Source: Candidatus Heimdallarchaeum aukensis (lineage in GTDB: Archaea > Asgardarchaeota > Heimdallarchaeia > Heimdallarchaeales > Heimdallarchaeaceae). From it: a stretch of DNA of 64,000 nt. The stretch is from contig CP084166.1 in NCBI GenBank assembly GCA_021513695.1, forward strand, positions 2,048,001 through 2,112,000. Direction: 5' to 3'. The position numbers and the translations under genes are program-made. The stretch's first letter is position 1. Each line of letters opens with the position of its first letter. Below, in pieces: positions 6,001-47,110 of the stretch. Under the pieces are notes generated by a model. The model was not told the DNA's origin. It saw nothing but the letters and a program-made list of their open reading frames with translations, and ran no database searches.

Positions 6001-8641
6001 ACTAGATGAATATAGTGGTTTTAAAAGAGAAATTAACGTGTTTTGGTTTCAAATAAACAAAGATACAAATGAGGGAGAGATAGTTTATGATACATTAGAA
6101 CACTATTGTTATGAAAATGAAAAACTGAAGGAAGGAATAAAAGTTGTTGGAACGGAGGATATTTTGCAAGAGGTAGATAAGTTTCATCCAAAGAGAAATA
6201 AAATAAGAAGTAGTCAACCTATAATATCAATAGAAGCAAAGCAAAATGGAGGGAACATAGATTACGTTGTCTCAATGGATGAACAACTTCCTTTATTTAG
6301 GTTTATAGGTGGAGATTATTCAACTGCAACAGAAAAAGACATCAATTTTGCTAGTTTTCTTTACCCAAGAAAACATTCCAACGATATTGTTTTCGGATTG
6401 CAAGATGATAACTTAGATTTTATCGATGAAAAGGGTTTATGGCCTATCCATATGGGTTTAAGCCCAGGAAGGTTTACATACAACGTGCAAAACATATATT
6501 TAGATGAGATTAATTCAGCAAAAGCGTTATTGGATAAATTAGATGAATTAGATAACTTGCCTGTAGTAGAAGTTAAAACAAAGGATAATGAATATATAAC
6601 TCGACCAGCAACAGTTCAGGAAGTAAATCAACAGAGAGTATATGAGTTAATTAGATGGTACTCTACAAGTCAAGTGTATACTTATTATGTGTCTAGTTTA
6701 AATAAAGAAAATAAAGCATTTTTGTGCAGAGCATATCTAGATGATTGGAATGCAGCTAAATCGTTAGGTGAAATCATAGAAATAGCAGAAGATACTAATG
6801 GAAATCTATACCAGAAATATGGTTATGAGAATAAACAAGAATATCTAACCTTTAGAATGAATGTTATTCAAACAATAATAAACGAACAAGAACAGTTCTA
6901 TAAATACAAGTTTAAAGATGAAAGTGATTTAACAAAAGAAGAAAAGTTGGTAATATTTCTAAAAGAACAAAAAGAATTTTTTGAAAGATTACATAATGAC
7001 GCTGCTAAAATAGAGGCATTTCAAGAACCATTTTTTTCAAACTTGAGACTAGACATTAAAGAAGTCGATACATATAATGTACTTAATTATCGCAGTTTAG
7101 AATCGTCAATTGAATTACTTTTATTAAATAGATTTGACTCGTATAATAAGATACACTTATTCGAAGGAGATGTACCTTTTTCAAGAAACCCGATGAAATT
7201 CGGTTTCGATAATGTAATTGTCCAAATAGGTACGAGAGCATTCATAAACAAGGTCAAAGAAGAGGGAATATTAGATTTTGATGAAGATAAAAATTCAGTA
7301 TTAGAACTAGCTAATAAAGTATTTAAAAGAAAAACAGTTATAAAACCATTAATCCGCGGACCAATAAAAGCAAAATCAATTGCTTTTCTCCAACATGAAG
7401 AAACAATGGCTAAACTGAACAATTATAAAACATTGCAAAAAATATCCAAAGAAGAAATAAGGCTCTGGAAACTTTACAACAAAAAATTAGATAATGAAAA
7501 AGGCCATTTGACTGTAGAGCAACTATACGAAATAGAAGAAGAGTTCAACAATATAAATGGAAAAAATATAGTAGGAAAACAAGGAGCAGGGATGACAGTA
7601 ATAGAAGATGGAAACACATATGTTGTAAAAATATACAGTCTCATCAGTGATTTAAGATATAATAACAAAATTCATGCAGGTAGTGAGGCAAATAAGTATG
7701 ATATTGCAGAAAGAGTGTTGGGACTAGCACAACACATAAAGTACGTAGCAAAGGAAGGAAGAATATACATTAATTATGCAATGGCAAACATTCTTTATCT
7801 GATAAAAACACTAACAAACGGTAAAATGGAAATAGATGACGTCCAGAATCTAAGGGACCTGGGAAATCCAAAGGAATTAGAAGCTATACTAGTAAATAAT
7901 TTAGGGGAAGAAAGAACAAAAGAAATACTAAATATTTTAGAAGAAGTAACCATAAGAACGAAAAGAAAAATAAAACAAGGAAAAGATTATTCCATAGAAA
8001 ATATAGAAAAAGGACAATCGTTGGCTTTTCAAATTGGATATGTGGATCTGAAAAATATAACCCCTGAGGTAAGAGGAAAATTAAGGCTACAAGGGATGTT
8101 ATTGAGAGAAATCTTGATGTTACTGGATATAATATATGGACTATATTATACAGGAAGAAATTATATGAAACGCCTAGATATTAATTTAGCGCAAACAACA
8201 GTAATTTTCGAAAAAACAACGGAAGAAGGCAAAACAATACTAAAATTAAAAGACGTAAAAACAAGCACAGAACAAGAAATGAATGGAGAGTTCATATCAT
8301 CACTGAACGATTTCGACCAAAAAACAGCATCAATAATAGAAAAACTGGCTGAAACTAAATATTCATCAGTATTTGGACCAGAATTTATGACTAGAGAACA
8401 ATTAAGAAAATTGGTAGATGAAATAATAGAAGAATATGAGAGTATACTAAAATTGAAAATAAGAAAATTCAATGAAATATTAACTCAAGACGATATGGAA
8501 GTAGAACTAGTAGCAAAGAAATTCAAAATAGAAGAATTGCTAAAAATGCTAACACCTAAAGGATTATGGTCAATGTACGAGCAAAAGAAAAGAAATAATG
8601 AAAAAAGAGGACAAACAAAAATAACAGACTTCCTAATTTAA
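2..8641 (+). CDS. giant hypothetical membrane-associated protein, 5'-partial (ORF open to window edge)
   Basis: One uninterrupted frame. Frame 2 has no stop between nt 2 and the first ATG at 254, so the ORF continues upstream of the window. Hydrophobic helices are encoded at about 3780-4290 (FSLIVTLEFLVNLVDIGALLIDI, ELMIWIVGAAQV, LQITLGSFMIFASKMIYAI). I recognise no catalytic motif. Confidence 0.75.
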   Translation, partial: LVGVGESTEQYIATISREEKTITYSAILSSAEEQEQWKYFYISLYQLARHIPKELLVDNYSNGNKEVDLLDENYPVSGIISDAKMVVNYEGSYVEKIIQLEKGANQNLYISDLKSTITNIHSAYPYENALSSLPEEIKWKKYDVPFDGYIPLDNVYLDDFDGSSYYIYDVVVYVDASTYSKVHLTVETEGSFVLSNRYSIILQKMGFSNEVVSTVFSAQQGYTPLYLHVVFPKTAFNQNIRIQYISNGGVAISAENNREGDAISEWLISTPFYSEKNEDTVDYLNFISQVTPMEGERFEKRVVDSEGFTHTETIEFSEFTFPGFCPILDFVPHAVPSGYSVILTTTLDFAKSLNTSLVLLLNKESGITIQSLLWDETPLLYINEGVFNEIDSDLENGMITIPLNSEGLTVNSLFSPKENNPNEYGFIENDPDYNFHFSSSDPYSIKTSSVNPDSVILNNKGIHRIVIQLTFPSPYNTDFGIYLENVDDSVRTVLSPSDKAIDFHAIAQKNFIQFENDLHQPQTLAQLEKNENTLFKSRYFKDDYGQYHSYRIYSLGFSDEYTLDKGKKWKIYDGDTDDSNDVIYESTAHYNWKHVIGKMNFAIVIDEGTPQVLQLPFNFLVGYMVFCDWLDTNGDGLEDTCAPYIGLADPLDASSTYDDVKKGVVYNTEEEKKISYDVTDEQQAELKNLTVRQSLISSLSTTVITKTEETIPLSYTSDEIAAIQNNGLTLDRYLHSLIENDYLTYSEDIARVEITISSSNNKEIDLAYDYDKEILFTHSVDNATGEEEKIVYDFRYDCFSVLTPDALANDNYRVDFYTFNNKLSLYDTDLYKLKETPNSYGLLDDPQTLSPMVVLENYNYEIKETVNSLDSKDEEILNNSPTTIVDAFVQGLSLSQLSVEMYDAEIEMDYYSLDLFYSVFFNEYLTLQQFFYSQETLNNNQNYQYYPTGTIQFAKWISSILNSYIIQQSDKLFDEYQNRTSRYDSEKKAIAAMSFLLDLIIPYRGFKTYGSEPKPEETHHPRFSSYVDFKYSLVMFWGLILGNSAGCGIPKNSVSLFSESERTGKLLMIDELWDKAIKHWNLADKSRIDDPSEYLPYTDRAVVDKILFDARVRGDEAMIDWITNEDYSAEAYYMQPYGVDYSIYYWLKAFTIQQGYDPYAIKVYTIEEMNSQEREDFDENYFVIGVPVSTIEDQYLEYNWFVSLDKETRVPTSATSQLIDFIPLVFGQSSNPHIRTMMKIIKRLGNAAKGENFGYNTFSMSEFSLIVTLEFLVNLVDIGALLIDIRDAYIGATPFIRKMSLMQIPMDILDLFTPGPFSLVGNTMNKIFKSIVGDVTLEVNRITKTFNLLDIVQNFPKGEWKSIARAAGKSELMIWIVGAAQVTYRFSKLANQFYQWFFFLPQKIFMSSLQITLGSFMIFASKMIYAIRRMDIEEAMLLNIKAQKYFNQGLDDTAKMTRAILSHPKMLARFGTEELIERANIVAKYYMNIIIKKVMELEATSKAILESVEKSRFYVMMALRYATHMYMNTPGGVGIHFSPNLIDNEKETEGIRHFNTVDNILPKLEYEIAMYYWKHEYLADDEKIKEYNSEKFNFRDVESAKIHITIAFSSIAAIHSTPESFQRYKELLEYTDKRLIEIKNEKGENLEYTPIWWILHLPVDPSLQKLALSHIFDESPAVSLLLKVLMVEKGLNEDLLENNIDDIDEYNKEVHSILDQILSSSPLNISHKVFILEKDEKGNHIWKARILDLLGQSEGSLTKLRTRDEYIKWSVIGRTGIDLLGLFGSEELKNYFPKGVRNALTARNDQTSIIYELICMGLLDFRFYTDDKNVKDQLKIDFPEHDFEKEPSISIAELAKKYSKYDILELFEKSNFIRQTLISNGVDGLIHSTKIGKSLYSVKDSTGIFNKANSKNILYSVAAENAYIGHGSVIYYYDKLQGDIITDIDNKLIYNARYYDPTASKSPKPFVPGDAILLYDSNVNRYLFLRTNFPEDTMLNQNQKLDEYSGFKREINVFWFQINKDTNEGEIVYDTLEHYCYENEKLKEGIKVVGTEDILQEVDKFHPKRNKIRSSQPIISIEAKQNGGNIDYVVSMDEQLPLFRFIGGDYSTATEKDINFASFLYPRKHSNDIVFGLQDDNLDFIDEKGLWPIHMGLSPGRFTYNVQNIYLDEINSAKALLDKLDELDNLPVVEVKTKDNEYITRPATVQEVNQQRVYELIRWYSTSQVYTYYVSSLNKENKAFLCRAYLDDWNAAKSLGEIIEIAEDTNGNLYQKYGYENKQEYLTFRMNVIQTIINEQEQFYKYKFKDESDLTKEEKLVIFLKEQKEFFERLHNDAAKIEAFQEPFFSNLRLDIKEVDTYNVLNYRSLESSIELLLLNRFDSYNKIHLFEGDVPFSRNPMKFGFDNVIVQIGTRAFINKVKEEGILDFDEDKNSVLELANKVFKRKTVIKPLIRGPIKAKSIAFLQHEETMAKLNNYKTLQKISKEEIRLWKLYNKKLDNEKGHLTVEQLYEIEEEFNNINGKNIVGKQGAGMTVIEDGNTYVVKIYSLISDLRYNNKIHAGSEANKYDIAERVLGLAQHIKYVAKEGRIYINYAMANILYLIKTLTNGKMEIDDVQNLRDLGNPKELEAILVNNLGEERTKEILNILEEVTIRTKRKIKQGKDYSIENIEKGQSLAFQIGYVDLKNITPEVRGKLRLQGMLLREILMLLDIIYGLYYTGRNYMKRLDINLAQTTVIFEKTTEEGKTILKLKDVKTSTEQEMNGEFISSLNDFDQKTASIIEKLAETKYSSVFGPEFMTREQLRKLVDEIIEEYESILKLKIRKFNEILTQDDMEVELVAKKFKIEELLKMLTPKGLWSMYEQKKRNNEKRGQTKITDFLI

Positions 8642-8664: not shown

Positions 8665-8768
8665 TGGTGCGTCAACCGGGAATTGAACCCGGGCCGTCGA
8701 ATCTCTTCTTGAGGCTTCTAGACGCCATATAATGGAAGTCCGACGTACTACCACTATACTATTGACGC
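8665..8768 (-). tRNA. tRNA-Gly(UCC) with ~30-nt intron at the canonical 37/38 site, CCA encoded
   Basis: Hand-folded cloverleaf. Acceptor GCGTCAA/TTGACGC, D arm GTAT-AGTGGTA-GTAC, anticodon stem TCGGA/TTCGA with loop CT-TCC-A, T arm CCGGG-TTCAATT-CCCGG, then ACCA. Length is 104 nt, so about 30 nt is inserted after position 37. Confidence 0.85.
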
Positions 8769-10326: not shown

Positions 10327-12684
10327 TTGTTCAGAACTTTATTCTTTTTTTGTTCCTTAAGCGTAACCTTTTTTATTTTTCCTCAATACATACTCTGGAT
10401 AGCAAAATTGACCTCCTATATTCCTTTATCTCTTTCTGATGTTGTGCATAAAATAAGTATCTATGAGTCTGAATTGAATTTATTTAATAGTTCCAAGAAA
10501 AAAAACTTTGGTATCTACTATACCCCTGACTTTATAGTTGATTATATTGTTTCTAACGCTTTTCTTAGATATTTATCGAAGTTTGACAGCGATATTCCGC
10601 AATTAGTTAAGAAAATCTTGTCTCTTAACTCAAACCTCTCAAATCATGAAAAAAAGATTCTAATATATTTACACCAACATATTTTTCCAAATATAACTGT
10701 CTGTGATATATCGATGGGTTGGGGTGTCTTCCTCATCCATACATTTGATTACTTATTTTTACTGCGTAAAAACGTATTTATTCTTTTATATTCTCCTTCT
10801 TCTTCTGAATTAGAAGAGGAAAGCAAAAAAATCGCTATAGATATCATTCAGAATAGTCTTTTTGGTGCTGATCTTTCCGAAAAGGCTATAGAATTGGCTC
10901 AATTAAAGTTATTTAAACAAGTAATGGAAGCTCTAAATTGTTCTAATATTAAACTTCCTCGTGCTAATTTTAGACAAGGAAATAGTTTACTAGGTTTTAT
11001 TAATAAAGAATATATTAATGGAAAGGATTCTACAAACTACTGGGTTGAACTTTTTTTATCTAAATTTAAAAAGAAAACATTAATCACAGAAGTTTATAAC
11101 TTTTTAAGAAAACAAAAACTAGTTCATTGGAAATCATTTTTTCCTCAATTGAGAAATCGAGAAGGTTTTGATATTATCGTAGGAAATCCCCCCTACATCA
11201 ATGTTAAACGTTTACCACAAATTGAGAGATATATTTATGCAAGCATTTATGAAACTTATAATTCCAACGGTGATCTATCTAACGTTTTCTGGGAACGTGC
11301 ATTATCAATATTACGTCCCTCTGGAGTTGTTTCTTTTATAGTTCCTCGATACTGGTTAGAGGGTAAAGATAGCAATAAATTGAGATATTTTATCCAGAAG
11401 AATTCTAGAATCCTTGAAATCATGGACTTCCAAAGTAATAGGAGTTTGTTTTCTGAGAGCGAAAAAAAGTTGGGGGTCGATGTTTCTATTGTAACTTTAG
11501 AAAAAAGAAAAGAAAAAGGATTGTTTGACGTTTATATTTTACAAAATTCTGAGAGAATAACCTCTGTCAATAAACATAATTTTCTTGTTAAACAAATCGA
11601 TCAAGAATCCCTCTCCTCTTCAAGATGGAACTTTAATGTTCCTAAACTGGTTGAATATCTCGATGAACATAGTTGTTTAACACTTGGGGGAGATAAAGAA
11701 AATAATATTCCTGGTGTGTGTTATATCGGGAAAGGTTGTTCAACAGGTAATAATTCAATATTTACTTTAAAAAAAATTAAAGATAATATATTTGAAGGAT
11801 ATAAAAAAGTTAAACTTTCTCTCCCTGAAAATGAACAAAGAGTTTTAAGAAGATTAATTAAAAATAGTGATATTACCCGCTATTTTCTTAAAAAACAAGA
11901 GCGATATTGGATATTTCTCAAAGACAAGTCTATTTCAGATTACCCTATGATTGAGCAGTATCTACATAAGTATATCGAGAAACTCAAAGAAACACAAAAA
12001 AAATATGGTAGTAAGAACTTCTTTGACTATGCAGCCTATCGCTCTTTAAATTTAATTGATAGTGTTCCAAAAATCGTAACGCCATATCAGTCTTCAATTA
12101 ATAGATTTGCTTTAGTTAAAAGTAAAGCGCCCCTAACAATTAATGAAACAGATGTTATCACTCTTGTTATCAAACAAGAAATGCGTTCTAAGTTGGACTG
12201 GTTTTTTCTTCTTTCTCTTCTAAATTCTGAACTTTTACATTATTATATTAAACACAGAAACAAAAAAATTTACTATCTCTACGATTTTAGAACAAGTCAA
12301 ATTACCACTCTACCTATTCAAGTCTCTCACAACCAAAAAGTGGTAAGTTTCTTTTCTGAATGTATGTACAGAGCACAAGCACTTCAATTGGATGATAGAC
12401 TATATATGCAAGTCAGATCTAAACTCGAGTTTATAATAAATTCTTTGGTTTTTGAAATTTATCTTAGAGAGAAACTATCTTCAGAATTAGAAGAAGTGTT
12501 GCAAGAAATTGTCTTTACGCAGAAACCTGAAGTCATTAATTTTAAACGCGAAAATGAATTTCTTTCAAAAATATTGTCCTCTCCTACAATTATTAAACAA
12601 CTAAGACAGATTTACTCAAATAAGGAAGTAACCTCTGTAGTTAAAGATTTAAGTTTACCCTATTCAAAATTTATTATAAAGTGA
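10327..12684 (+). CDS. N6-adenine DNA methyltransferase, Eco57I/TaqI-like gamma class, no nuclease domain seen
   Basis: Motif X GIYYTPDFIVDYIV, motif I DISMGWGVFL and motif IV IVGNPPYI are present. The long C-terminal half looks like a target-recognition region. There is no ATG upstream of motif X; the track start is TTG 10327, so the exact start is uncertain. Confidence 0.8.
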   Translation: MFRTLFFFCSLSVTFFIFPQYILWIAKLTSYIPLSLSDVVHKISIYESELNLFNSSKKKNFGIYYTPDFIVDYIVSNAFLRYLSKFDSDIPQLVKKILSLNSNLSNHEKKILIYLHQHIFPNITVCDISMGWGVFLIHTFDYLFLLRKNVFILLYSPSSSELEEESKKIAIDIIQNSLFGADLSEKAIELAQLKLFKQVMEALNCSNIKLPRANFRQGNSLLGFINKEYINGKDSTNYWVELFLSKFKKKTLITEVYNFLRKQKLVHWKSFFPQLRNREGFDIIVGNPPYINVKRLPQIERYIYASIYETYNSNGDLSNVFWERALSILRPSGVVSFIVPRYWLEGKDSNKLRYFIQKNSRILEIMDFQSNRSLFSESEKKLGVDVSIVTLEKRKEKGLFDVYILQNSERITSVNKHNFLVKQIDQESLSSSRWNFNVPKLVEYLDEHSCLTLGGDKENNIPGVCYIGKGCSTGNNSIFTLKKIKDNIFEGYKKVKLSLPENEQRVLRRLIKNSDITRYFLKKQERYWIFLKDKSISDYPMIEQYLHKYIEKLKETQKKYGSKNFFDYAAYRSLNLIDSVPKIVTPYQSSINRFALVKSKAPLTINETDVITLVIKQEMRSKLDWFFLLSLLNSELLHYYIKHRNKKIYYLYDFRTSQITTLPIQVSHNQKVVSFFSECMYRAQALQLDDRLYMQVRSKLEFIINSLVFEIYLREKLSSELEEVLQEIVFTQKPEVINFKRENEFLSKILSSPTIIKQLRQIYSNKEVTSVVKDLSLPYSKFIIK

Positions 12685-19999: not shown

Positions 20000-20084
20000 G
20001 CGGGGATTGCCGAGCGGTCAAAGGCGCTGGACTTAGGATCCAGTCCTTAGTGGTTCGAGAGTTCGAATCTCTCTCCCCGCACCA
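20000..20084 (+). tRNA. tRNA-Leu(UAG), CCA encoded; integration target
   Basis: GCGGGGA-TT-GCCGAGCGGTCAAAGGC-G-CTGGA-CTTAGGA-TCCAG, then a long variable arm, then GAGAG-TTCGAAT-CTCTC-TCCCCGC-ACCA. Confidence 0.92.
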
Positions 20085-20095
20085 TTTCTTCTTTT
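20057..20095. repeat. attL core (39 bp)
   Basis: GAGAGTTCGAATCTCTCTCCCCGCACCATTTCTTCTTTT, identical to 22887-22925. Confidence 0.9.
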
Positions 20096-20098
20096 ATC

Positions 20099-20106
20099 TT
20101 TATATA
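20099..20106 (+). promoter_or_regulatory. TATA-box-like element upstream of the element ORF
   Basis: TTTATATA is centred about 26 nt upstream of ATG 20128, a spacing compatible with a leaderless archaeal transcript. Confidence 0.35.
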
Positions 20107-20127
20107 TTTCCTTTTCCTTTTTTCTTT

Positions 20128-22881
20128 ATGGTTGCTTTTTCTCCTACTTTTTCTGTTATCGATTCTTTCTCTTTTCTTCACGACCCTCAATTTGTTTTTT
20201 TACTTCAGACTTTTATTGATTCTTCCCCTGACTTTTTTTCGTTTCTTTCTCTTCTTTCTTCCTCTTCTCCCTCTTCTCTTTCTTCTTTTGTAAGGGACAT
20301 TTTTTTACTTATTTCTTTTGATGATCCTTTTTCTCTTTCTTCTTCCTCTTTTCATTTTTTTGATTCTCATTTTAATTGGAAATCTTTTCTTTCCTTTTTC
20401 CTTGATTCTTTTTCTTCCCGTAAATTTTCTCTTTGCAATTTTTCTTTATTTTATGCTCATTTTTCTTTTTTGCATTTTTCTATTCCTAATTTTTTATCTG
20501 ATTTTGCATTCTTTTTTTTATCTGATTTAGATTTTAATTTTTTATCTTCTTCCTTTTTCAGTTCTTTTTTCTCTTTTGAATCTTTTTATGATTTTTTCTT
20601 TTCTTATTTTGATTCTTTTTTACCTTCCTATCGTCTCCTTATGCGTCATCGTTTTAATTCTTCTCCTAACCATTTTTTTCCTCCTTTTCTTCCATTCCTT
20701 CGTTCTGAAGAGGTTAGCTCTTATTTTAAGTCCTTTCTGTATATTTGTGGCTTTGATAAATCTGTTTTCGGTTTTGGTTCTTCTCGTGCTAAGGTTGATC
20801 CTCGTCAATTTGCTGAGTCTTTTCAAACTTCTTGGATTAAATTGCACTTTCATTTAGACAAAATGCGTTTTCCTTTTACTCTTTCTTCTACTCGTGTTCT
20901 TTCTCTTTATCATCCTGGTCGTTATGTTTCTTCTGTTAATCCAAGTAATGGTTTTGACGATCTAATTGTTTTTTCTTCCTCCTCTTCCATTCCATCCTCT
21001 CTTTCCTCTTCTCCTTCTTCTCTTTCTTCCTTTTCTTCTCCCGTTTCTCCCTGCTTTACTATTTGTGTTATTGAGCAAAAAATGAACCATTTAGACGTTA
21101 AGCGTTTAGATAGTCCTTCTTCCTCTTCCGATTTTACGCGTTATCTCTCTTACCTTGCTAAAACCCACTTAAATCCCTTTATTCTTCTTTTACAAGCGTT
21201 TCATTATCCTGAAAAAGATAGACTTAAATTGTCCTCTCTATTGTATGATCGCTCTTTAACTTATTCTAACTCTGTTGGATTAGACTTTTTACGTAAAATC
21301 ACGAATGGTGATTTTCTATCTTCTCTTAAACTAATTGAACCTTCTTTAGATGATCAAACTATCAATAATATTCTTCGGGGTTCTATTATCCAGCACCAGC
21401 TTATTTCTTTGATTAAGTCTGGTTTTTGTTTTAAATTGGCTTTTGTTGATGGTTATTATACCGTTAAAAAGAGGTATCCTGGTGACCTGGTCTCTTCTGT
21501 TATATGTTATTATAATTGTTTAAATGGTTCTTGCGTTGAAATCCATTTTCCTTCGTCGCTATTTGAAATAAGAATAGATTCTAGGGGTCATTTTCTTGTA
21601 CCTCAGTACTCTGAATCTCAGATTTCTTCATATGCAAAGACAGAAAACGAGCTTATGGCTTATCAGGAACTCAACAATCTATTTAACACTTTACGGAGCG
21701 ATATGATTTTTAATGTAAATATTTTGTCTCTCCCTCCTTTTGAAATTGTAAAAAAAGTTAATTTATATCAAAAAAAGATTCTCTTTTTTTTACTTAATTC
21801 TAGACGAATTGCTGATTTAAGTATCTTTAACGATGGTTTTGTTAAATCTTATTTGGAAATTTTTACTTTACCAAAAACAGCTCATCGGATCAAGAGATAC
21901 TTATCCTATATACACGATTCACTTTCAATTTTTCCCTATTCGTTTTATCAGCAGTGGAATGCTCCTTTTGGCGATAGACTAAAAAACATGTTCTCTGGTT
22001 CTTTTAGTCGTGATACCCTTCTTTGTAAGCGTTTTAAAGAAAAGCTTCTTGAGTTTATTTTATCCTCTGATTATGATTTTTCCGAAATGCCTTTAGAATT
22101 TATTGAAACTAAGTTACGTCATTCACCTGATATTCAAATTTTTTTAGATTGCTATTTTAGTCAGTTTGCTCTTTATCCTGACGGTAATTTTTTACGGTTT
22201 AAACATAATAAAATTTCTTTGAAAGCTCTTGCTTTTTGGGATGAGACCAACAATCAATGGTTTTCGCTTAACAAGAAGCGTTTTTACATTTTATTGAACT
22301 TTGAAGATATTTTAGCTAATATAAGTAAGGAAGTGTCTTTTAAAGTAACAAAAAATCTTTTGCTTTTTCCTATTAAATTTAGTTTAAATAAACGCACAGG
22401 GCAGTTATCAGCTCTATTTAATACTGATTTTACTAACACTGAAGTAAACAGAATTTGGGTTGCATATCTTAAAAAATTGAAAGGAATGGATCTTTCCTTT
22501 GAGATTTTGTCCTCTTTTTCTTATGGTCAACGAAATAAGCGGAGTGGAATTGATTTATTCTATAACTGTAACCAAAAAAAGCTTTCAATATTGTTGGCAA
22601 TATTATCAGAAACTATTAAGTTGTGGAGTTTGGTTAAAGAACTTGTCCTTAACGTTGTTTATAAAAAATTAGATTCTGAAATGGATAAAATTATCTTATC
22701 TACCAAAGGAGATAAAATTGTTCTCAATGGCAAGCAATACAAAATGGTCTTACTCAATTACAATGAAAGTAATTCAAGGGTTAGGTGGTCGTTTAAACAC
22801 TACCTATTTCCTGTTGAAGGAACAATTATTGATGATTTTGTTAAAAAATGTTATTCTATTTATACTGATTTATTTTCTTAG
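20128..22881 (+). CDS. orphan protein of the tRNA-Leu element (about 917 aa; N-terminal third F/S/L-rich low complexity)
   Basis: First ATG after the tRNA in the long frame. The track start 19978 reads through the tRNA gene and is rejected. The stop lies 5 nt before attR. The C-terminal ~600 aa has ordinary composition. I recognise no recombinase or Rep motif. Confidence 0.55.
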   Translation: MVAFSPTFSVIDSFSFLHDPQFVFLLQTFIDSSPDFFSFLSLLSSSSPSSLSSFVRDIFLLISFDDPFSLSSSSFHFFDSHFNWKSFLSFFLDSFSSRKFSLCNFSLFYAHFSFLHFSIPNFLSDFAFFFLSDLDFNFLSSSFFSSFFSFESFYDFFFSYFDSFLPSYRLLMRHRFNSSPNHFFPPFLPFLRSEEVSSYFKSFLYICGFDKSVFGFGSSRAKVDPRQFAESFQTSWIKLHFHLDKMRFPFTLSSTRVLSLYHPGRYVSSVNPSNGFDDLIVFSSSSSIPSSLSSSPSSLSSFSSPVSPCFTICVIEQKMNHLDVKRLDSPSSSSDFTRYLSYLAKTHLNPFILLLQAFHYPEKDRLKLSSLLYDRSLTYSNSVGLDFLRKITNGDFLSSLKLIEPSLDDQTINNILRGSIIQHQLISLIKSGFCFKLAFVDGYYTVKKRYPGDLVSSVICYYNCLNGSCVEIHFPSSLFEIRIDSRGHFLVPQYSESQISSYAKTENELMAYQELNNLFNTLRSDMIFNVNILSLPPFEIVKKVNLYQKKILFFLLNSRRIADLSIFNDGFVKSYLEIFTLPKTAHRIKRYLSYIHDSLSIFPYSFYQQWNAPFGDRLKNMFSGSFSRDTLLCKRFKEKLLEFILSSDYDFSEMPLEFIETKLRHSPDIQIFLDCYFSQFALYPDGNFLRFKHNKISLKALAFWDETNNQWFSLNKKRFYILLNFEDILANISKEVSFKVTKNLLLFPIKFSLNKRTGQLSALFNTDFTNTEVNRIWVAYLKKLKGMDLSFEILSSFSYGQRNKRSGIDLFYNCNQKKLSILLAILSETIKLWSLVKELVLNVVYKKLDSEMDKIILSTKGDKIVLNGKQYKMVLLNYNESNSRVRWSFKHYLFPVEGTIIDDFVKKCYSIYTDLFS

Positions 22882-22886
22882 GCTTG

Positions 22887-22925
22887 GAGAGTTCGAATCT
22901 CTCTCCCCGCACCATTTCTTCTTTT
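22887..22925. repeat. attR core (39 bp)
   Basis: Identical copy of 20057-20095. Confidence 0.9.
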
Positions 22926-22968
22926 CTTTTGTTTTCTTTTTCGTTTTGTTTCGTTTTGTTTATTTTTT

Positions 22969-23010
22969 GATAGTGATAGTGATAGTTACACCTTTTTTGA
23001 TAGTGATAGA
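22969..23010. repeat. GATAGT hexamer array (3 copies, 12-nt spacer, 2 copies)
   Basis: TTTTTTGATAGTGATAGTGATAGTtacaccTTTTTTGATAGTGATAGA, read directly from the sequence. Confidence 0.85.
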
Positions 23011-23012
23011 CT

Positions 23013-23708
23013 TTATTTTTCTCTTATTGTTCCGTAAATTCTCATATATCTTGGTTTTATTTTTTTTCTTTTGATGTATCTTTTTATTATCGTCACATCT
23101 ACTATTATTTTTACTCCTATCATTATCATCAATATTGTTTCTATTGTTCCATTGAATACCAGTAGATAAATTAGGAATTCTTCATCTCCTGCTGCATTAG
23201 CTATTGAAGCTATTACTGAAACAATTATTGAATAGAATCCGAATATTTGGTATAATATACTTCCCACTTTAATATCTGTTATTTTTTTTATTCTTGTTAG
23301 CATTAGATCTATTTTTCTGAATCCTATTGCTCTTGACGCTAGACTTATTAGAATCGCAAAGCTTCCGAAAACCACACTTCCTATAGTGAATGGTTTTAAT
23401 ATTTCTCCTATTGCATAAATCAACAAATATGTTCTTCCTTGCATTCCTTCCTTTCTGACGTGGTCTTTAAAGTATAGGTCTGCTATTCCTCCGAAGCTTA
23501 ATGCTATTGGTATTAAGCTTAGAGCTATTACTGCAGCAAAAATATAATCAAAAAACCAATTTACTGCTCTTAAGTATTGTATTGTCCTGTTCGACAGATT
23601 TATTGCTGCTGCTATTGTAAACAAAATGCTTCCCGTTATTGCTAAAAAAGAAAATTTGTTTATTTCTGTGTTAAATATTTTCTTCTGCTTTTCTTCGTTT
23701 GAGACCAT
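23013..23708 (-). CDS. hypothetical polytopic membrane protein (paralogue of 27285-27950)
   Basis: About 6 TM. It aligns by eye with the 27285-27950 product, for example FGFYSIIVSVIASIANA..LIYLLVFNGTIETILMIMIGVKIIVD against FGSYRIVVAIVVGIAANV..LYLIAVNATLEAIFTFIIGIKLLID. Confidence 0.65.
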   Translation of the reverse strand: MVSNEEKQKKIFNTEINKFSFLAITGSILFTIAAAINLSNRTIQYLRAVNWFFDYIFAAVIALSLIPIALSFGGIADLYFKDHVRKEGMQGRTYLLIYAIGEILKPFTIGSVVFGSFAILISLASRAIGFRKIDLMLTRIKKITDIKVGSILYQIFGFYSIIVSVIASIANAAGDEEFLIYLLVFNGTIETILMIMIGVKIIVDVTIIKRYIKRKKIKPRYMRIYGTIREK

Positions 23709-23723
23709 GCTTAAACCCTTTTT

Positions 23724-24593
23724 TTATACTTCTGATGCTAAGAGAAAGTCTGCTTCCTTTGCGTTAAATGAGCTTCTCACAAACGGAGCTGAAGCTACGA
23801 ACTTAAATCCCAGCTCATAACCTATTTTTTCATATTCCTTAAAAGTATCTGGGTGAACGTATTCTTCTATTTCTAAGTTTGAGCTTGGTGGTTTCAGATA
23901 TTGTCCTATAGTTAATATGTCACAATCTACTTTTCTTAAATCCTTTAATACTTGTATTACTTCTTCTTTTGTTTCTCCTAGTCCAACCATTATTCCTGAT
24001 TTAGTTAATATTTCCTTACTATATTCTTTGACCATCTTCAGTACTTTTAATGATATTTCATAATTTGCTTGTGGTGTGACTTTTTTATATAATCTTGGTA
24101 CTACCTCTACATTGTGATTAATTATGTTTGGTTTTGCTTCTATTATTGTTTTAATGCTCTCCTCTTTTCCTTTCATGTCAGGTATAAGTAGTTCTATTAT
24201 CAAATCTTCTTTATATTCTCTTAATTTTCTTGTTATTTCGGCGAAATGTGCAGCTCCTCCATCTGGTAAATCATCTCTTGTTACTGATGTGACTACTACG
24301 TGCTCTAAATTTAGTTTTTTAGCTGCTTCAACAATATGTTTTGGTTCCATGGGATCTAGTGGTTGTGGTCTTCCTGTTGTAATATCGCAAAATTTACAAT
24401 TTCTTGTACAGACATTTCCCATCACTAGAAATGTTGCAGTTTTATTTACAAAGCATTTTCCTATATTTGGGCACATTGATTCTTCGCATACTGTATGTAG
24501 ATGCAGTTCTCTCATAAGTTTTTGAACTTGTTTTATCTCTTCCCTCTGCACCTTCCCAATTCTTAACCATTCTGGCTTTCTTACATTTGGCAT
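23724..24593 (-). CDS. lipA: lipoyl synthase
   Basis: Auxiliary cluster CEESMCPNIGKC and radical-SAM cluster CTRNCKFC. The length and remaining sequence are typical of LipA. Confidence 0.92.
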   Translation of the reverse strand: MPNVRKPEWLRIGKVQREEIKQVQKLMRELHLHTVCEESMCPNIGKCFVNKTATFLVMGNVCTRNCKFCDITTGRPQPLDPMEPKHIVEAAKKLNLEHVVVTSVTRDDLPDGGAAHFAEITRKLREYKEDLIIELLIPDMKGKEESIKTIIEAKPNIINHNVEVVPRLYKKVTPQANYEISLKVLKMVKEYSKEILTKSGIMVGLGETKEEVIQVLKDLRKVDCDILTIGQYLKPPSSNLEIEEYVHPDTFKEYEKIGYELGFKFVASAPFVRSSFNAKEADFLLASEV

Positions 24594-24617
24594 TATTACT
24601 CACTTTTCTTTATTGTT

Positions 24618-25349
24618 TTATTGTTTTTCTATTTCTCTTTCTCTTTCTTTTTTTTCTATTTTTGTCAATAAATCTCTTGGTGAAAGATCCTTAATTTCTA
24701 TGTTAAATACTTTAGTAAAATTGTTTTTAAATTTCTCATACACTTCACGCATATCAACGCTTCTATTTAGAACTTCCTCGAGTGATATGGGTATAAAATC
24801 TGTTATTCCGCATGGAATTATCATTTGAAAATGACTCATATTTGTATTTACATTCAGTGCTAATCCGTGTGATGTTATATGCTTTGATGCTCTCGCTCCG
24901 ACAGCAGCTATTTTGGATATTTGACCATTATGTTCTATCCACACTCCAGGATATTCTTCTCTTCTGAAACCTTTTATGTTGTATTCCATTATCGTTTGAA
25001 TTACTACTTCTTCCATTTTGTGAACGAACTCGGGTATAGTGATTTTCAATTGTATTAAATCTAATAAAAAGTAAGCTACTAATTGTCCTGGGCCGTGATA
25101 TGTTACTTTTCCACCTCTTCTAATTTCAACAACTTCAATTCCTTCTTTTTCCAACACCTCATCACTAACAAGAATTTCACTTCTCTTTCCTTGTTTCCCT
25201 AAAGTAAAAACTGGTGGATCATGTTGTAACAATAACAGAAAATTGTCGTATTGTCTATCTTCCTCTTTTATGTTTCTTATTTTATTCTGTATCTCTAATG
25301 CGCTTAAATAATCGATAGTATCGTATTTTATAACAAAACATTCACTCAT
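24618..25349 (-). CDS. lipB: octanoyltransferase (lipoate-protein ligase B)
   Basis: RRGGKVTYHGPGQLVAY and KIAAVGAR ... HGLALNV motifs. The gene is adjacent to lipA. Confidence 0.9.
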   Translation of the reverse strand: MSECFVIKYDTIDYLSALEIQNKIRNIKEEDRQYDNFLLLLQHDPPVFTLGKQGKRSEILVSDEVLEKEGIEVVEIRRGGKVTYHGPGQLVAYFLLDLIQLKITIPEFVHKMEEVVIQTIMEYNIKGFRREEYPGVWIEHNGQISKIAAVGARASKHITSHGLALNVNTNMSHFQMIIPCGITDFIPISLEEVLNRSVDMREVYEKFKNNFTKVFNIEIKDLSPRDLLTKIEKKEREREIEKQ

Positions 25350-25519
25350 TAAGTTATTTTTTTCTTATTCTTTTTACAGATTTCGATTGGACGATACCCC
25401 TAATATTTGTGATTAAAACTCTCTTTCTTTTATTTTTGTCCTTTTTTAAAGAAACACTAAATTCAAAAACTTGAAAAAGGTACTAATCAACGCTCCTATG
25501 AGATAAAAAGGTGAACTCA

Positions 25520-25786
25520 ATGAGCGTAAAAGTTTACAAAATTACTGGACATTATAAGAAGGGCAAACAAAGGATAAAATTCAGCAAGTTTGTTCGTGCG
25601 TTAAATCCACAAGATGCTTTGGAAAATATTTATGCAATTATGGGTAGTAAACATCACGTAAAGAGAACTGAGATCGTTCTTACTGAAGATAGCATTCGTG
25701 AAATTACTGATCCCAATGAAATAACAGATCAGTATGTTCATACATTCACAACTGACGATAACCTAAAAATCCCAAAAAAGGCTTAG
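25520..25786 (+). CDS. rplX: 50S ribosomal protein LX (eL20/L18Ae family)
   Basis: MSVKVYKITGHYKKGKQRIKFSKFVRALNPQDALE is typical of archaeal LX. It lies in the conserved LX-prefoldin alpha-FtsY order. ATG 25520 is preferred to the track GTG 25511. Confidence 0.8.
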   Translation: MSVKVYKITGHYKKGKQRIKFSKFVRALNPQDALENIYAIMGSKHHVKRTEIVLTEDSIREITDPNEITDQYVHTFTTDDNLKIPKKA

Positions 25787-25787
25787 T

Positions 25788-26225
25788 GTGATAAGATTGG
25801 CAAGTAATAAACCCCAAATTGGCCAGGAAGAATTAAGTAAGTTACTTTATTCTGCTCAACAACTAGAGCAACAAGCTGGTCAATATCAGAAACAGCTAGA
25901 GGTCTTTCAAAGTTATTTAGCTGATATGAATAATGCTGAAAAAGCAATGAAAGAGCTCAAGAATATCTCTGATGAAAAAAATATTCTCGTTCCAATAGGT
26001 GCAGGTAATTTCATTCATGCATCAGTAAAGAAAACAGAGAAAGTTATTTCCTCTTTAGGTGCAGGAGTACATGCAGAGATACCAATCGACCAGGCATTAG
26101 CTAACATAGAAAAAAGAAAAACTGATGTAAACAATCAAATCTCACAAGTACAGGCAAATTATAACCAAGTAATTGAGAGACTAAAAGAAATCGATTCTTT
26201 TGTTAGAATGATACAACAAGGATAA
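25788..26225 (+). CDS. pfdA: prefoldin alpha subunit
   Basis: About 145 aa with coiled coil, beta hairpins (ILVPIGAGNFIHASV) and a second coiled coil. Conserved position before ftsY. Confidence 0.8.
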   Translation: MIRLASNKPQIGQEELSKLLYSAQQLEQQAGQYQKQLEVFQSYLADMNNAEKAMKELKNISDEKNILVPIGAGNFIHASVKKTEKVISSLGAGVHAEIPIDQALANIEKRKTDVNNQISQVQANYNQVIERLKEIDSFVRMIQQG

Positions 26226-26260
26226 TCTTTCTTTACGGGGGAATTTTTTTGTTCAAAAAT

Positions 26261-27163
26261 ATGAAAAAAAGCCTTTCTTCTCTTTTGAAGAAGATCACTA
26301 TTGCCGAACTTAACCAAAAGACTATAAAAAAGGTAATTCACCCCCTTAAGGACATACTAATACAAAATGAAGTAGCGGTGGTAACAGCTGATAAAATTTG
26401 TGAAAGTGTTTCAGATAAGTTACTAAATGTTGAGTATAAACGTATGTCTTCTCCAAAAAGCCTTATCCTAGAAGCTTTACGCTCTTCATTATTAGAAATT
26501 TTACAACCAGAAGAGACAATTGATTTATTGAGTTTAGTAGAAGAATATAAAAAGAAAAAACAGCCTTTAGTCATTGCCTTCTTTGGAATAAATGGCGTTG
26601 GTAAAACTCTTTCAATAGCTAAATTAGGCTATTACTTGAAAAAAAATGACATTTCTTCTGTTTTTGCTGCGTCAGATACCTTTAGAGCTGGAAGTATACA
26701 ACAATTGGAGCAACATGCAAAAAAAGTAGGGGTAAAAATTATTTCTCAAACATATGGTTCTGATGCTGCAGCAGTAGCTTTTGATGCAGTATCACATGCT
26801 TCAGCTAAAGGAATTGATGTAGTTCTAATTGATACGGCAGGAAGGATGGAAACAAATAAGAACTTAATGGCTGAATTACAGAAATTAGATAGAGTTGTTG
26901 AACCTGATTTGAAGATTTTTGTAGGTGATGCTTTAACAGGTAATTCTTTAGTATCTCAAGCAGAATTATTTAATAGTAAGATAGGTATTGATGCTTCAAT
27001 TATTAATAAGATGGATGCAGATGTTAAAGGAGGAGCAACAATCTCTGTTGTGCATGCTACAAGGAAACCAATTTTATTTATAGGCGTAGGACAAAAATAT
27101 AATGACTTAAAACCATTTATTCCTGAACAAATAATCAAGAATGTTCTTCCAGATAAAATTTGA
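26261..27163 (+). CDS. ftsY: signal recognition particle receptor FtsY
   Basis: SRP-GTPase motifs FFGINGVGKT, DTFRAG, DTAGR and NKMD. ATG 26261 is preferred to the track TTG 26249. Confidence 0.92.
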   Translation: MKKSLSSLLKKITIAELNQKTIKKVIHPLKDILIQNEVAVVTADKICESVSDKLLNVEYKRMSSPKSLILEALRSSLLEILQPEETIDLLSLVEEYKKKKQPLVIAFFGINGVGKTLSIAKLGYYLKKNDISSVFAASDTFRAGSIQQLEQHAKKVGVKIISQTYGSDAAAVAFDAVSHASAKGIDVVLIDTAGRMETNKNLMAELQKLDRVVEPDLKIFVGDALTGNSLVSQAELFNSKIGIDASIINKMDADVKGGATISVVHATRKPILFIGVGQKYNDLKPFIPEQIIKNVLPDKI

Positions 27164-27284
27164 ATTGAACCTTTTCACCTTTTACACTTGGAGTTCTATA
27201 GATAACTTGATTATTCACTATCGTAATGTTTAAAGAACTGATTTTTTGTTTGAAAACTACTAACGATAAGGTTTGTGAATTAAA

Positions 27285-27950
27285 TTGGACGTTTCTCACG
27301 AAGCATTACTACCGTTAAAAATAGAATATCATTTTAAGGAAACATTCATTTGGAGCTTTTCAGGTGTAATTTTGTTATTGCTTTCTTCATTATTCAACAT
27401 CATAGACCTTTTAGTTACAAGATGGGCTTATGTCGGATGGTTCCGACAATACCTAATAAGATCAACGATGTCTATTAGCTTTCTTCCCCTTGCAATAGGT
27501 TTTGGGATGATTTTTTCTAACTTTTTTGTAGGTTTTATAAGGCGAGAAGGAGAATTAGCAAAAAATTGGCTGATTGTTTATAGTATAGCAGAAATGGTCT
27601 CGCTTTTTACATTAAGTACAATAGTATTAGGTGCGTTTACTCTGCTAGCAATTATTTTCGGTAAATTGATAGCATTTATTTACTTAGACAGAGTTTTTTT
27701 GAAACTTAAAAAAAATGATGAGGTAAAGATAAATTTTAGTTTAATTTATCCGCTTTTTGGCTCCTACAGGATAGTAGTAGCTATAGTTGTAGGAATAGCA
27801 GCAAATGTAAGAGATTATGAAACAGAGCTATATTTGATAGCTGTAAATGCAACACTAGAAGCAATTTTTACCTTTATTATAGGAATAAAGTTGTTAATAG
27901 ACCTACTTAAAATTCGTTCTTATATAAATAGTAAAAGAAAGAAAAAATGA
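27285..27950 (+). CDS. hypothetical polytopic membrane protein (paralogue of 23013-23708)
   Basis: See 23013-23708. TTG start as given in the track. Confidence 0.6.
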   Translation: MDVSHEALLPLKIEYHFKETFIWSFSGVILLLLSSLFNIIDLLVTRWAYVGWFRQYLIRSTMSISFLPLAIGFGMIFSNFFVGFIRREGELAKNWLIVYSIAEMVSLFTLSTIVLGAFTLLAIIFGKLIAFIYLDRVFLKLKKNDEVKINFSLIYPLFGSYRIVVAIVVGIAANVRDYETELYLIAVNATLEAIFTFIIGIKLLIDLLKIRSYINSKRKKK

Positions 27951-27967
27951 AAAATAAAATCTTTGAA

Positions 27968-28936
27968 TCACTCAAATACCTTTTTCACAGGTTCAAAGAT
28001 TTTTGCTAATTCGGTAGCAATAACTTTCTTTAAATCTAGAGGATGAAGATTTCCCTCAACAAAGGTTTTTTCTAATTCTTCATAATTATTGAAAGAAATA
28101 TCTCCGCCAAATTTTTCGGGTCTTTCAACAGTTAATGATTTAATGTTCGGAAAAATAATCAATTTTGCAATCTGAAGAACAGGATTGTCTTCAACGATTT
28201 TAGCAGGACAATATGCCTTCTTAAGTTTGCGTTGAATATCCTCCTTGGAATCTATGACAGATATCATCGATTCTGGGATTGAAGAAGACATCTTTGATCC
28301 TGGGCCCATGAGGGAAGAAATAAGAGGAGTGTGAATACATACGGGAGGTTTTAACTTTAATTCACTAGGGAAAACTTCTCTAGCTAACATGTGAATCTTT
28401 CTTTGCTCCATTCCTCCTTGTGCAGCGTCAAGATCAAGATATTTAATATCTAATACTTGCATAAGTGGATAAATCATCTGAGATACGGTAGCATTTTCAA
28501 TATCTCGAGCAATTTCTTGCATAGATCGTAAACCACGGTTAATAGTTACACGCAAAGCTAGACGGTGTAAGTCTTGAATGTATTCCTTGTCATATTGAAA
28601 CTCGCTACCAAGAACGATTTCAGGATTTTTAAGGCCTAAGGCACGCATAGCTTTTTCCCAGAGAACGCAATTTTCACTTATTTCCTCTTCAGTACCTTTT
28701 TTGTTCAAAAGTGCATGAACGTCAGCTAGTAAAATCTTAATATGAAAACCGGCACTTTCAAGATCTTTTAACTTCATTACAGTAACTGCATGACCAAGAT
28801 GAACAGGACCACTAGGTTCGTAGCCAGTATAAATGTTAGGTGAATCTTTAGTCTCTAAAAGCTCTTTTAATTCCTGTTCAGTAACAATTTCAGTAGTATT
28901 ATACTTAATAAGATCAATTTTTTTTGCAGTGTCCAT
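27968..28936 (-). CDS. tyrS: tyrosyl-tRNA synthetase (archaeal type)
   Basis: Class I motifs YTGYEPSGPVHLGH (HIGH) and KMSSS (KMSKS). About 320 aa, typical of archaeal TyrRS. Confidence 0.88.
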   Translation of the reverse strand: MDTAKKIDLIKYNTTEIVTEQELKELLETKDSPNIYTGYEPSGPVHLGHAVTVMKLKDLESAGFHIKILLADVHALLNKKGTEEEISENCVLWEKAMRALGLKNPEIVLGSEFQYDKEYIQDLHRLALRVTINRGLRSMQEIARDIENATVSQMIYPLMQVLDIKYLDLDAAQGGMEQRKIHMLAREVFPSELKLKPPVCIHTPLISSLMGPGSKMSSSIPESMISVIDSKEDIQRKLKKAYCPAKIVEDNPVLQIAKLIIFPNIKSLTVERPEKFGGDISFNNYEELEKTFVEGNLHPLDLKKVIATELAKIFEPVKKVFE

Positions 28937-31607: not shown

Positions 31608-31733
31608 GGGGCATTAGCTCAGCTTGGTTTAGAGCATCCGGCTCATAATTTGCGTCCTAGAAACAGTCTAATTCATTAAGAACGCAAAAGAGCGACCGGA
31701 TGGTCATCGGTTCAAATCCGATATGCCCCACCA
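31608..31733 (+). tRNA. tRNA(CAU), elongator Met or Ile2, with ~49-nt canonical intron, CCA encoded
   Basis: Acceptor GGGGCAT/ATGCCCC, D arm GCTC-AGCTTGGTTTA-GAGC, anticodon stem TCCGG/CCGGA with loop CT-CAT-A then the insert, T arm ATCGG-TTCAAAT-CCGAT, then ACCA. Confidence 0.85.
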
Positions 31734-46220: not shown

Positions 46221-46280
46221 GTTCCCATCTTTTATTTCTTTTTTTAAAAATAGTTGCTTTTTTAACTTCATTGATTGCTC

Positions 46281-46319
46281 GATAGTGATAGTGCTGATAG
46301 TGATAGTGATAGTGATAGC
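46281..46319. repeat. GATAGT hexamer array (2 + 4 copies)
   Basis: GATAGTGATAGTgctGATAGTGATAGTGATAGTGATAGC, lying between two convergent genes. Confidence 0.85.
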
Positions 46320-47064: not shown

Positions 47065-47110
47065 TATTTTTCATCTTTTTTGGTTTTTTTATTTAGACTA
47101 CCATTCAATT

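Follow-up and report, generated by a model that had tools for sequence, protein, structure and literature searches.

The hexamer GATAGT recurs in dense clusters at three places in a 64,000-nucleotide (nt) stretch of the genome of Candidatus Heimdallarchaeum aukensis (CP084166.1, positions 2,048,001-2,112,000, forward strand; hereafter the window). One cluster lies beside a displaced fragment of a tRNA-Leu gene (site 1), whereas the other two flank a gene for a 198-residue protein with a helix-turn-helix (HTH) N terminus (sites 2 and 3). What are these repeats, and to which of the two neighborhoods do they belong? An earlier note on this DNA had tied them to both and had offered three labels: iterons, a centromere or an operator set. 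We propose that the GATAGT and GATAGC units are probably half-sites, with the core TGATAG, of the 198-residue HTH regulator, which apparently controls its own gene. Heimdallarchaeia are the archaeal group placed closest to eukaryotes, and to our knowledge and in the searchable literature no transcription factor-operator pair has been defined in them.

GATAGT repeats cluster at three sites

The window has a G+C content of 32.7% and contains GATAGT 50 times, against 31.4 ± 5.6 expected, with 0 shuffles reaching 50. The surplus comes entirely from sites 1-3, which are also the only stretches window-wide with at least three copies of GATAG per 30 nt (5, 6 and 3 copies). The maximum per 60 nt was 4 in 200 Markov simulations, versus the 5-6 observed. 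Both tandem arrays, at sites 1 and 2, were called independently by Tandem Repeats Finder (TRF), and the other period-6 arrays that it reported in the window are T/C-rich low-complexity sequence.

The arrays that the earlier note had described at three loci are confirmed at 22969-23009, 46281-46319 and 47111-47136, and the window holds no other cluster. A longer string said to occur three times, the 13-mer TTTTTTGATAGTG, does have three exact copies, at 22963, 22993 and 47118 (the first two coordinates had been one base off), where chance would give ~0.5 matches in the window even with one mismatch permitted. All three sites share the half-site, and site 1 has a T6 prefix and an 'n+2' layout in common with the others. 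In ~155 kb of DNA from the clade plus a 10-kb extension, perfect palindromes and perfect tandem dimers are confined to sites 1-3 and the orthologous positions. A scan of genome contigs with GATAGTGATAGTGATAG returned, among the matches listed, unrelated bacterial matches and one useful match, in Heimdallarchaeum endolithica (contig L060); among those listed from a two-block pattern scan of viral contigs were unrelated giant-virus matches. The clustering, together with conservation alongside the HTH gene, supports the earlier view that the repeats are a functional set of cis-elements and not random simple sequence.

A conserved palindrome at the promoter of the HTH gene

The HTH gene is chromosomal and syntenic in H. 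endolithica (L254) and in strains L255-L257, with orthologs on L001/L002 (70% protein identity) and L003/L004 (63%). Its neighbors in the orthologous loci are formate-dehydrogenase-like genes, a gene for a MobA-like nucleotidyltransferase and housekeeping genes. At the nucleotide level, H. aukensis and H. endolithica are 85.6% identical in the HTH gene, 81% in the 5' intergenic region and 65.6% in the 3' intergenic region. The comparison with relatives that had been recommended earlier shows that both the promoter palindrome and the downstream array are conserved with the gene in other Heimdallarchaeaceae.

Site 3 contains the palindrome TGATAGNNCTATCA, whose single zero-mismatch match in the window is at 47123-47136 (Table 1). 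Throughout ~155 kb of Heimdallarchaeaceae DNA the perfect palindrome occurs at orthologous promoters only (the window, L254, L001 and L003), and matches with two mismatches are at background level. The core palindrome is invariant in a three-species alignment as well as between H. aukensis and H. endolithica. Upstream of the gene, the alignment of H. aukensis with L001 and L003 reveals an invariant TAGTAAAAATTTTTATA, comprising an element resembling the B recognition element (BRE) and the TATA box, then ~26 nt further on (G)TGATAGCACTATCAA, followed by AATGATAGTA, which is invariant in H. endolithica too; the remaining upstream region is poorly conserved. A 17-nt promoter block is unchanged among H. 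aukensis, L001 and L003, where the mean identity of the alignment is 64%, and is identical in L254 and L256. The geometry between the TATA box and the palindrome is identical in L001, L003 and L254. The site is thus kept with the gene while its flanks diverge, in alignments with overall identities of 64% and 81%.

The order of the sites is shared as well. An inverted pair at an offset of 7 is followed by a direct site 12-13 nt on in the window, L001, L003, L010 and L013, and L001 and L003 carry one to three extra TGATAG copies up to the start codon. The spacing from TATA box to start that is usual in archaea puts the transcription start at the edge of the operator; because the palindrome lies ~26 nt past the TATA box, transcription would begin at the palindrome edge. 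As expected of an autoregulatory operator, the site overlaps or directly follows the TATA/BRE of its own gene and the start predicted from spacing. Protein bound at the palindrome would interfere with recruitment of the polymerase.

A second block stands out in the same stretch of intergenic DNA, which separates the HTH gene from the MobA-like gene. The near-palindromic tctagctaaagctacctaggctgcttctaag, at 47240-47270, is well conserved between the two species amid variable sequence, and it has no match in Rfam.

Table 1. Window coordinates of the repeat sites, the regulator gene, its promoter elements and the features around them
Feature	Position	Strand	Remarks
198-residue regulator gene	46468-47064	-	flanked by sites 2 and 3
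Site 3	47111-47136		ACTATCA-TTTTT-TGATAG-TG-CTATCA
Core operator palindrome	47123-47136	-	TGATAG-TG-CTATCA; gene sense strand TGATAGCACTATCA
Operator half-site TGATAGT	47111-47117	-	5 nt past the palindrome
Degenerate half-site TGGTAGT	47098-47104	-	TGATAGC in H. endolithica
Putative archaeal promoter of the HTH gene	47162-47179	-	sense strand TAGTAAAAATTTTTATAG: BRE-like AGTAAAAA, then TATA box TTTTTATA
TATA box TTTTTATA	47163-47170	-	26 nt upstream of the palindrome
Site 2	46281-46319	+	(GATAGT)2-GCT-(GATAGT)3-GATAGC tandem array
HTH-gene T7 run	46386-46392	-	~76-82 nt after the stop; likely intrinsic termination signal
Zinc-ribbon-gene T-runs	46239-46245, 46258-46263	+	
Site 1	22963-23009	+	TTTTTT(GATAGT)3 TACACC TTTTTT GATAGTGATAG
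Site 1 sub-blocks	22969-22986; 22999-23009	+	(GATAGT)3; GATAGTGATAG
Site 1 layout			two T6 + GATAGT blocks: 3 units, 12-nt spacer, 2 units
Intact tRNA-Leu(TAG)	20000-20084	+	last 31 nt and ~11 nt more recur at 22884-22925
Displaced tRNA-Leu(TAG) 3' fragment + 11 nt ('attR')	22884-22925	+	context of site 1, not part of the operator set

The 198-residue protein and its family

The product of 46468-47064 matches UJG40036.1 of Ca. H. aukensis with 100% identity. In this protein, a three-helix HTH at the N terminus (residues 1-47) is joined through a linker (~48-90) to a C-terminal domain (91-195). The HTH and the C-terminal domain are almost invariant, whereas the linker is basic and variable. An AlphaFold model built from a five-sequence alignment places helices at residues 4-16, 21-28 and 33-47, with a predicted local distance difference test (pLDDT) score of 73-90 across the block, and these helices form a three-helix bundle with helix-turn-helix geometry. 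With a three-sequence alignment the pLDDT was 40.

A profile search of 1.84 billion representatives yielded only 14 matches, the relatives of the protein. The distant matches to the N-terminal profile P0008, P0010, P0013, P0014 and P0016 carry Pfam HTH_23/HTH_28, and no relatives were found in the viral collection. There is no significant match to PHROGs, NCBIfam or PADLOC models. A Foldseek search of the model against the PDB gave nothing below E = 0.05 and is uninformative, because the model outside the N terminus is poor. A sequence match to PDB entry 8vd6 was set aside as irrelevant, as that entry is a de novo designed repeat protein (PMC12339374). Taken together, the three-helix N terminus and the HTH_23/HTH_28 matches of the homologs make it plausible that the protein binds DNA. 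The name 'HTH gene' used in the earlier note holds in substance on these grounds, although not as formal membership of a Pfam family.

Two distant homologs cover the full length of the 198-residue protein, P0006 with 38% identity and P0007 with 33%. Upstream of their genes is a TATA-like box, then TGATAAyGTTATCA-type palindromes and direct TGATAAC repeats that continue up to the ATG. The order of sites in these loci matches that of the Heimdallarchaeum clade, with the inverted pair at offset 7 and the direct site 12-13 nt later, and a second array after the gene is also present in this paralog clade. Clusters of TGATAA(C) also stand directly upstream of the genes for P0018 and P0015, which are homologous in the N terminus only, and TGATAA is the commonest or second-commonest hexamer of their contigs. 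In seven of eight loci, the core is significantly enriched in the 150 nt upstream (P = 3e-3 to 5e-8). The family is linked to TGATAR arrays, of which the Heimdallarchaeum clade uses TGATAG(T/C).

Some further observations concern the family and its motif. In the paralog loci (L010:5884-5956, also L011 and L012; L259:632-818), a motif array lies inside coding DNA. Here, eight GATAAC sites encode the in-frame Asp-Asn-rich repeat NIDNVITQNDNANDNVITKNDNANDNVIIH in the linker of a 411-residue protein with the same N-terminal HTH; the peptide at L010:5884-5956 reads NDNANDNVIT. Similar DN-rich linkers occur in P0009, P0011, P0012 and P0015, GATAAC being Asp-Asn when read in frame; GATAGT in frame reads Asp-Ser. 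The N-terminal-only members are found on contigs with many small co-directional unannotated open reading frames (ORFs), which are mobile-element-like. WGATAR is the consensus of the eukaryotic GATA zinc-finger factors, and we treat the resemblance as coincidence because the proteins are unrelated in fold. TGATAG and TGATAA both fit WGATAR, and the site of the F55 protein of SSV1, ATAGATAG, contains GATAG as well (PMC5569661).

An array beyond the 3' end of the gene

Two genes converge at site 2, which lies between their T-run terminators and ~150 nt past the HTH stop codon. Few blocks of the 3' intergenic region are conserved in both H. aukensis and H. endolithica; one of these is CAGTATGTTTTTTT, at the HTH-gene T7 run. 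Oligo-T acts as a terminator in archaea. Since site 2 is flanked by the T-runs of both genes, it would lie outside the HTH transcript and is probably not transcribed, which argues for a role at the level of DNA. A TATA-like AAAAATAGTTGC is found 27 nt upstream of it on the plus strand, but an antisense promoter at site 2 was rejected, as the box is not kept in H. endolithica and the whole region is AT-rich.

The array has 4+2 units with a GCA spacer in H. aukensis, 4 (one degenerate)+2 with a CAATTA spacer in H. endolithica and 3+2 in L255. In L001 it is of mixed orientation (ACTATCACTATCAC GATAGC CTATCA) and lies ~100 nt after the stop. The motif is enriched within 300 nt downstream of the HTH gene in the window (P = 2e-6), L254 (P = 3e-5) and L001 (P = 8e-4). 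The gene on the other side of site 2, for a zinc-ribbon membrane protein (45324-46220), is inverted and N-terminally shorter in L001 (10874-11416) compared with both Heimdallarchaeum species. Because the array is nevertheless still 3' of the HTH gene in L001, it appears tied to the HTH gene and not to its neighbor.

The tandem arrays at sites 1 and 2 might instead be neutral slippage microsatellites that hold the half-site by chance, leaving the site 3 palindrome as the only functional element. Their perfect head-to-tail 6-bp periodicity is typical of slippage, unit number differs between close genomes at both sites (3 versus 4 at site 1, 4+2 versus 3+2 at site 2), and site 1 is missing in a more distant relative (L005). 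A neutral array would also be expected to disappear once its flanks diverge. At site 1, where the flanks are 96% identical, this expectation is uninformative, but site 2 keeps its place in H. aukensis, H. endolithica and L001 although its flanks are only 66% identical or cannot be aligned. Chance would not be expected to produce the same unusual unit twice, matching both the operator half-site and the shared 13-mer, and the paralog clade likewise has a second array after its gene. We therefore regard slippage as an unlikely origin of the arrays.

Alternatively, arrays at gene 3' ends could act as roadblocks or insulators that stop read-through between convergent units, the promoter operator being a separate use of the protein. 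In H. aukensis and H. endolithica both tandem arrays do sit in 3'-3' gaps between convergent genes, and site 2 is between the T-runs of the zinc-ribbon gene and the HTH gene. At site 1, no run of five or more T follows the stop of the adjacent 231-residue membrane-protein gene for ~165 nt, such that read-through from lipB-lipA and this gene would run antisense into the pre-insertion position of tRNA-Leu. Against this, the L001 array sits between two co-directional genes, and the argument is itself inferential, with two convergent placements carrying little statistical weight. We know of no description of roadblock termination in archaea, and we consider this function improbable.

Site 1 and the tRNA-Leu element

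The last 31 nt of the intact tRNA-Leu gene and ~11 nt beyond it recur at 22884-22925. The direct repeat aligns over 20054-20109 and 22884-22939 with 88% identity, and exact identity ends at ~22925. A 26-mer of the tRNA is exact at 20059-20084 and 22889-22914, with no third copy. Site 1 lies 54 nt past the end of the tRNA fragment (22914) and 3 nt past the stop of the 231-residue membrane-protein gene, which follows lipB-lipA. The distance of 44 nt from attR given earlier is correct if attR is taken as the full direct repeat; the tRNA fragment itself, which ends at 22914, is 54 nt from the array.

When DNA integrates into the 3' end of a tRNA gene, the original chromosome resumes at the distal copy and continues beyond it. 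Since site 1 is beyond the distal tRNA copy, it is on the chromosomal side, outside the element. The relatives agree with this placement. In H. endolithica (L060), metagenome contigs L007-L009 and L260 (the sole metagenome match to a 35-mer from site 1), the array has 4+2 units compared with 3+2 in the window, in an identical context. Meanwhile, the element measures 2.8 kb in the window and is a ~1.3-kb deletion derivative in H. endolithica and related contigs, and the position of site 1 is constant. The array is therefore neither inside the repeat-bounded DNA nor travelling with the element. The only long ORF of the element, annotated as a 746-residue product, is an orphan, confined to H. aukensis and one close relative, and is unrelated to the HTH protein. 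Neither this ORF nor the 231-residue protein has a significant match in Pfam, PHROGs, NCBIfam or PADLOC.

Site 1 is thus a genus-level feature of the chromosome and not part of the element. From its units it is probably another target of the 198-residue protein, and the association of the repeats with the tRNA-Leu element looks coincidental. The earlier note had the motif linking the tRNA-Leu flank to the HTH locus 23 kb away. The tie to the HTH gene stands, whereas the tie to the element does not, with the array on a chromosomal flank that is fixed while the content of the element varies and with an element ORF unrelated to the regulator. The analysis in this way corrects the impression that the repeats mark a tRNA-Leu mobile element.

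Two features of this region deserve mention in their own right. The repeat-bounded interval (20085-22883) is strongly pyrimidine-rich on the plus strand (GC skew of -0.25 and AT skew of -0.40 over 20-22 kb) with one frame open throughout, and contains no integrase. Identity between H. aukensis and H. endolithica is ~95% over 22763-28097, which covers lipB-lipA, the 231-residue gene, the array and the tRNA fragment, versus 87-92% over 36403-56916, around the formate-dehydrogenase-like and HTH genes. The higher identity of the segment near tRNA-Leu could reflect stronger constraint or more recent exchange.

The two labels of the earlier note that imply a mobile element were examined in the gene neighborhoods. 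No ParA, CbiA or MinD was found among precomputed Pfam hits within 10 kb on either side of the HTH gene (L254, L256, L001 and L003) or around site 1 (L005 and L007), and no replication initiator or integrase among the Pfam-annotated genes within 10 kb in the orthologous loci. GC skew in the window follows gene orientation only, with no origin signature. With no Rep or ParA gene among these annotated neighbors, neither iterons nor a centromere are supported; the 6-bp unit and the absent skew signature also speak against the former. Only the label of an operator set fits.

That the arrays are iterons, a partition centromere or recombination sites of the tRNA-Leu element, with the HTH protein as a Rep, ParB or excisionase-like factor, is thus very improbable: site 1 is only 44-54 nt from the duplicated tRNA-Leu end, N-terminal-only family members are on mobile-element-like contigs and short mixed-orientation repeat arrays are typical of type Ib/II centromeres (PMC9499535), but the array is outside an element whose content changes around it, the tRNA fragment has two copies only, the HTH gene is chromosomal and syntenic, 23 kb from site 1, in four genomes, the element ORF is an orphan, relatives of the protein are lacking from the viral collection, and neither an origin signature nor a Pfam-annotated Rep, integrase or ParA/MinD neighbor is present.

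A model for autoregulation

The computed clustering, the conservation with the gene, the promoter geometry, the family-wide association and the HTH fold point to the 198-residue protein as the probable reader of the TGATAG half-sites. At its own promoter, the palindrome and direct half-sites begin ~26 nt past the TATA box, at the expected transcription start. Occupancy there would block recruitment or escape of RNA polymerase, and the regulation would accordingly be negative, that is, repression rather than activation. Blocking of promoter sites is the usual mode of archaeal repressors.

The design of the protein may account for the mixture of sites. It appears to combine one small HTH, a flexible linker of ~40 residues and a C-terminal domain with a long helix that probably oligomerizes, such that several HTHs could bind half-sites at variable spacing, whether direct or inverted. 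Such a design would explain why both tandem 6-bp arrays and palindromes are used. Site 2 might then be an auxiliary high-avidity site, which could loop to the promoter operator ~0.8 kb away or serve as a reservoir or insulator between the convergent units, and the protein would have a second chromosomal target in site 1.

Several points weigh against this reading. Co-occurrence of motif and gene is no proof that the 198-residue protein, rather than another factor, reads the motif, and the protein belongs to no Pfam family at E ≤ 0.01. The transcription start of the HTH gene is positioned from spacing alone. In the AlphaFold model, the C-terminal part is α/β with a long terminal helix and is ill-defined (pLDDT ~40-60); because this domain is modeled poorly, oligomerization is a guess. 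L003 has no 3' spacer and no downstream array. The site 1 region is 96% identical between the two species, and its sole large change is a one-unit indel, as neutral slippage would give, so that its conservation is uninformative on selection and provides no differential footprint. Site 1 is also absent after the 60%-identical ortholog of the 231-residue protein in L005, where tRNA-Leu is missing too. Finally, a specificity code based on Ser versus Arg in the recognition helix, in which AVSVW reads GATAG and AVRVW reads GATAAC failed, as P0015 and P0018 have the Ser-type helix yet are accompanied by TGATAA(C) arrays; the half-site difference holds between clades, with no residue-level code.

A bolder version of the autoregulatory model is conceivable, though we think it doubtful. 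The protein could be a multivalent array binder, the founding member of an Asgard-lineage family, that clamps arrays beside its gene and at distant sites and so builds loops, insulators or roadblocks, with the DNA arrays in the paralog linkers co-evolving with the peptide repeats that they encode.

Other features of the window

A 2795-residue ORF without a Pfam match (254-8641) ends 27 nt before a tRNA gene of ~100 nt (8668-8768, minus strand), a layout that resembles the 'giant gene followed by a tRNA' of aloposons (PMC8813620). A link to aloposons through the family was considered and dropped, since the divergent giant ORF beside P0006 (L010) is not homologous to the 2795-residue ORF of the window. 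That tRNA gene and another at 31608-31730 (plus strand; 123 nt) score 59 and 56 bits in Rfam and were missed by ARAGORN; judging from their length, both are probably archaeal tRNAs with introns. Just after the genes for ribosomal protein L11 and Spt5/NusG, a 785-residue ORF (10327-12684) has Eco57I-type and N6-DNA-methylase domains, as in a type IIG-like restriction-modification enzyme. TRF also reported a 38-nt unit, GAAATAAAGACTCTAAAAGAAAAAATAGGTATAAAAAA, repeated perfectly in tandem at 48578-48663 (2.3 copies, 100% match). This repeat runs from the end of the MobA-like gene through the gap that precedes the stop (48664) of a convergent formate-dehydrogenase-like gene on the minus strand.

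Relation to known systems

The locus offers a candidate regulator-operator pair that is directly testable: a small soluble protein, a 14-bp palindrome with tandem arrays, a TATA/BRE promoter and natural TGATAG and TGATAAC variants. Genetic systems developed for Asgard archaea in future could use it as a regulatory part. No mention of the motif or the protein was found in the literature searched, and the published description of the genome covers transposases, CRISPR and 'aloposons' with no mention of GATAG (PMC8813620).

Two known systems are closest in how they work. One is F55 (Tlys) of the Saccharolobus fusellovirus SSV1, which binds tandem ATAGATAG repeats at its own promoter and at a few target promoters, where they overlap the BRE and the transcription start, with occupancy graded by the number of sites (PMC5569661). 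Like the 198-residue protein as proposed here, F55 is a small archaeal regulator with short tandem direct repeats, and its consensus, ATAGATAGAGT, contains GATAG (PMC5569661). However, F55 is a viral ribbon-helix-helix dimer of 55 residues, whereas the present protein is chromosomal, with 198 residues, a three-helix HTH and a C-terminal domain. The sites differ as well, in that here a palindrome is combined with direct repeats and two of the three arrays are at gene 3' ends and not at promoters.

The other close system is the omega protein (ParB) of plasmid pSM19035, whose sites at several loci are contiguous 7-bp repeats that can face either way, and the number of units matters (PMC9499535). 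Its arrays resemble the present ones in being unspaced, short (7 bp for omega, 6 bp here), direct and inverted, and variable in number. Unlike omega, a ribbon-helix-helix protein that works with the ParA ATPase delta on a plasmid, the 198-residue protein has another fold, a chromosomal locus and no ParA among its Pfam-annotated neighbors. In architecture the arrays resemble those of type Ib/II centromeres; the 198-residue protein is not of the ribbon-helix-helix class. By analogy, omega-like action as a repressor is plausible, whereas membership of a partition system is not supported. As F55 and omega are both ribbon-helix-helix proteins, the likeness to either is one of analogy and not of membership.

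Iterons are typically units of 17-22 bp, spaced about one helical turn apart, that lie beside a rep gene and an AT-rich unwinding element. As in plasmid iterons, directly repeated sites here may autoregulate the gene of their binder, but the units are 6 bp long and are accompanied by neither an initiator among the Pfam-annotated neighbors nor an origin signature.

In position, the operator resembles those of archaeal promoter-proximal repressors. Repressors such as MDR1, LrpA, Phr, those of the TrmB type and aCcr1 have operators at or just past the TATA/BRE and start, where they hinder recruitment of RNA polymerase, and autoregulation is common among them. The site 3 operator is likewise at or just downstream of the TATA/BRE and the predicted start. 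Those repressors belong to winged-helix, Lrp/AsnC, ArsR and ribbon-helix-helix families known to Pfam, whereas the protein described here pairs a homeodomain-like (HTH_23-like) domain with a C-terminal domain of no assigned fold, has very few relatives and is associated with arrays away from the promoter. A repressor at its own transcription start is thus a well-known class; the novelty lies in the protein family, in its confinement to Asgard-type sequences and in the additional arrays at the ends of genes.

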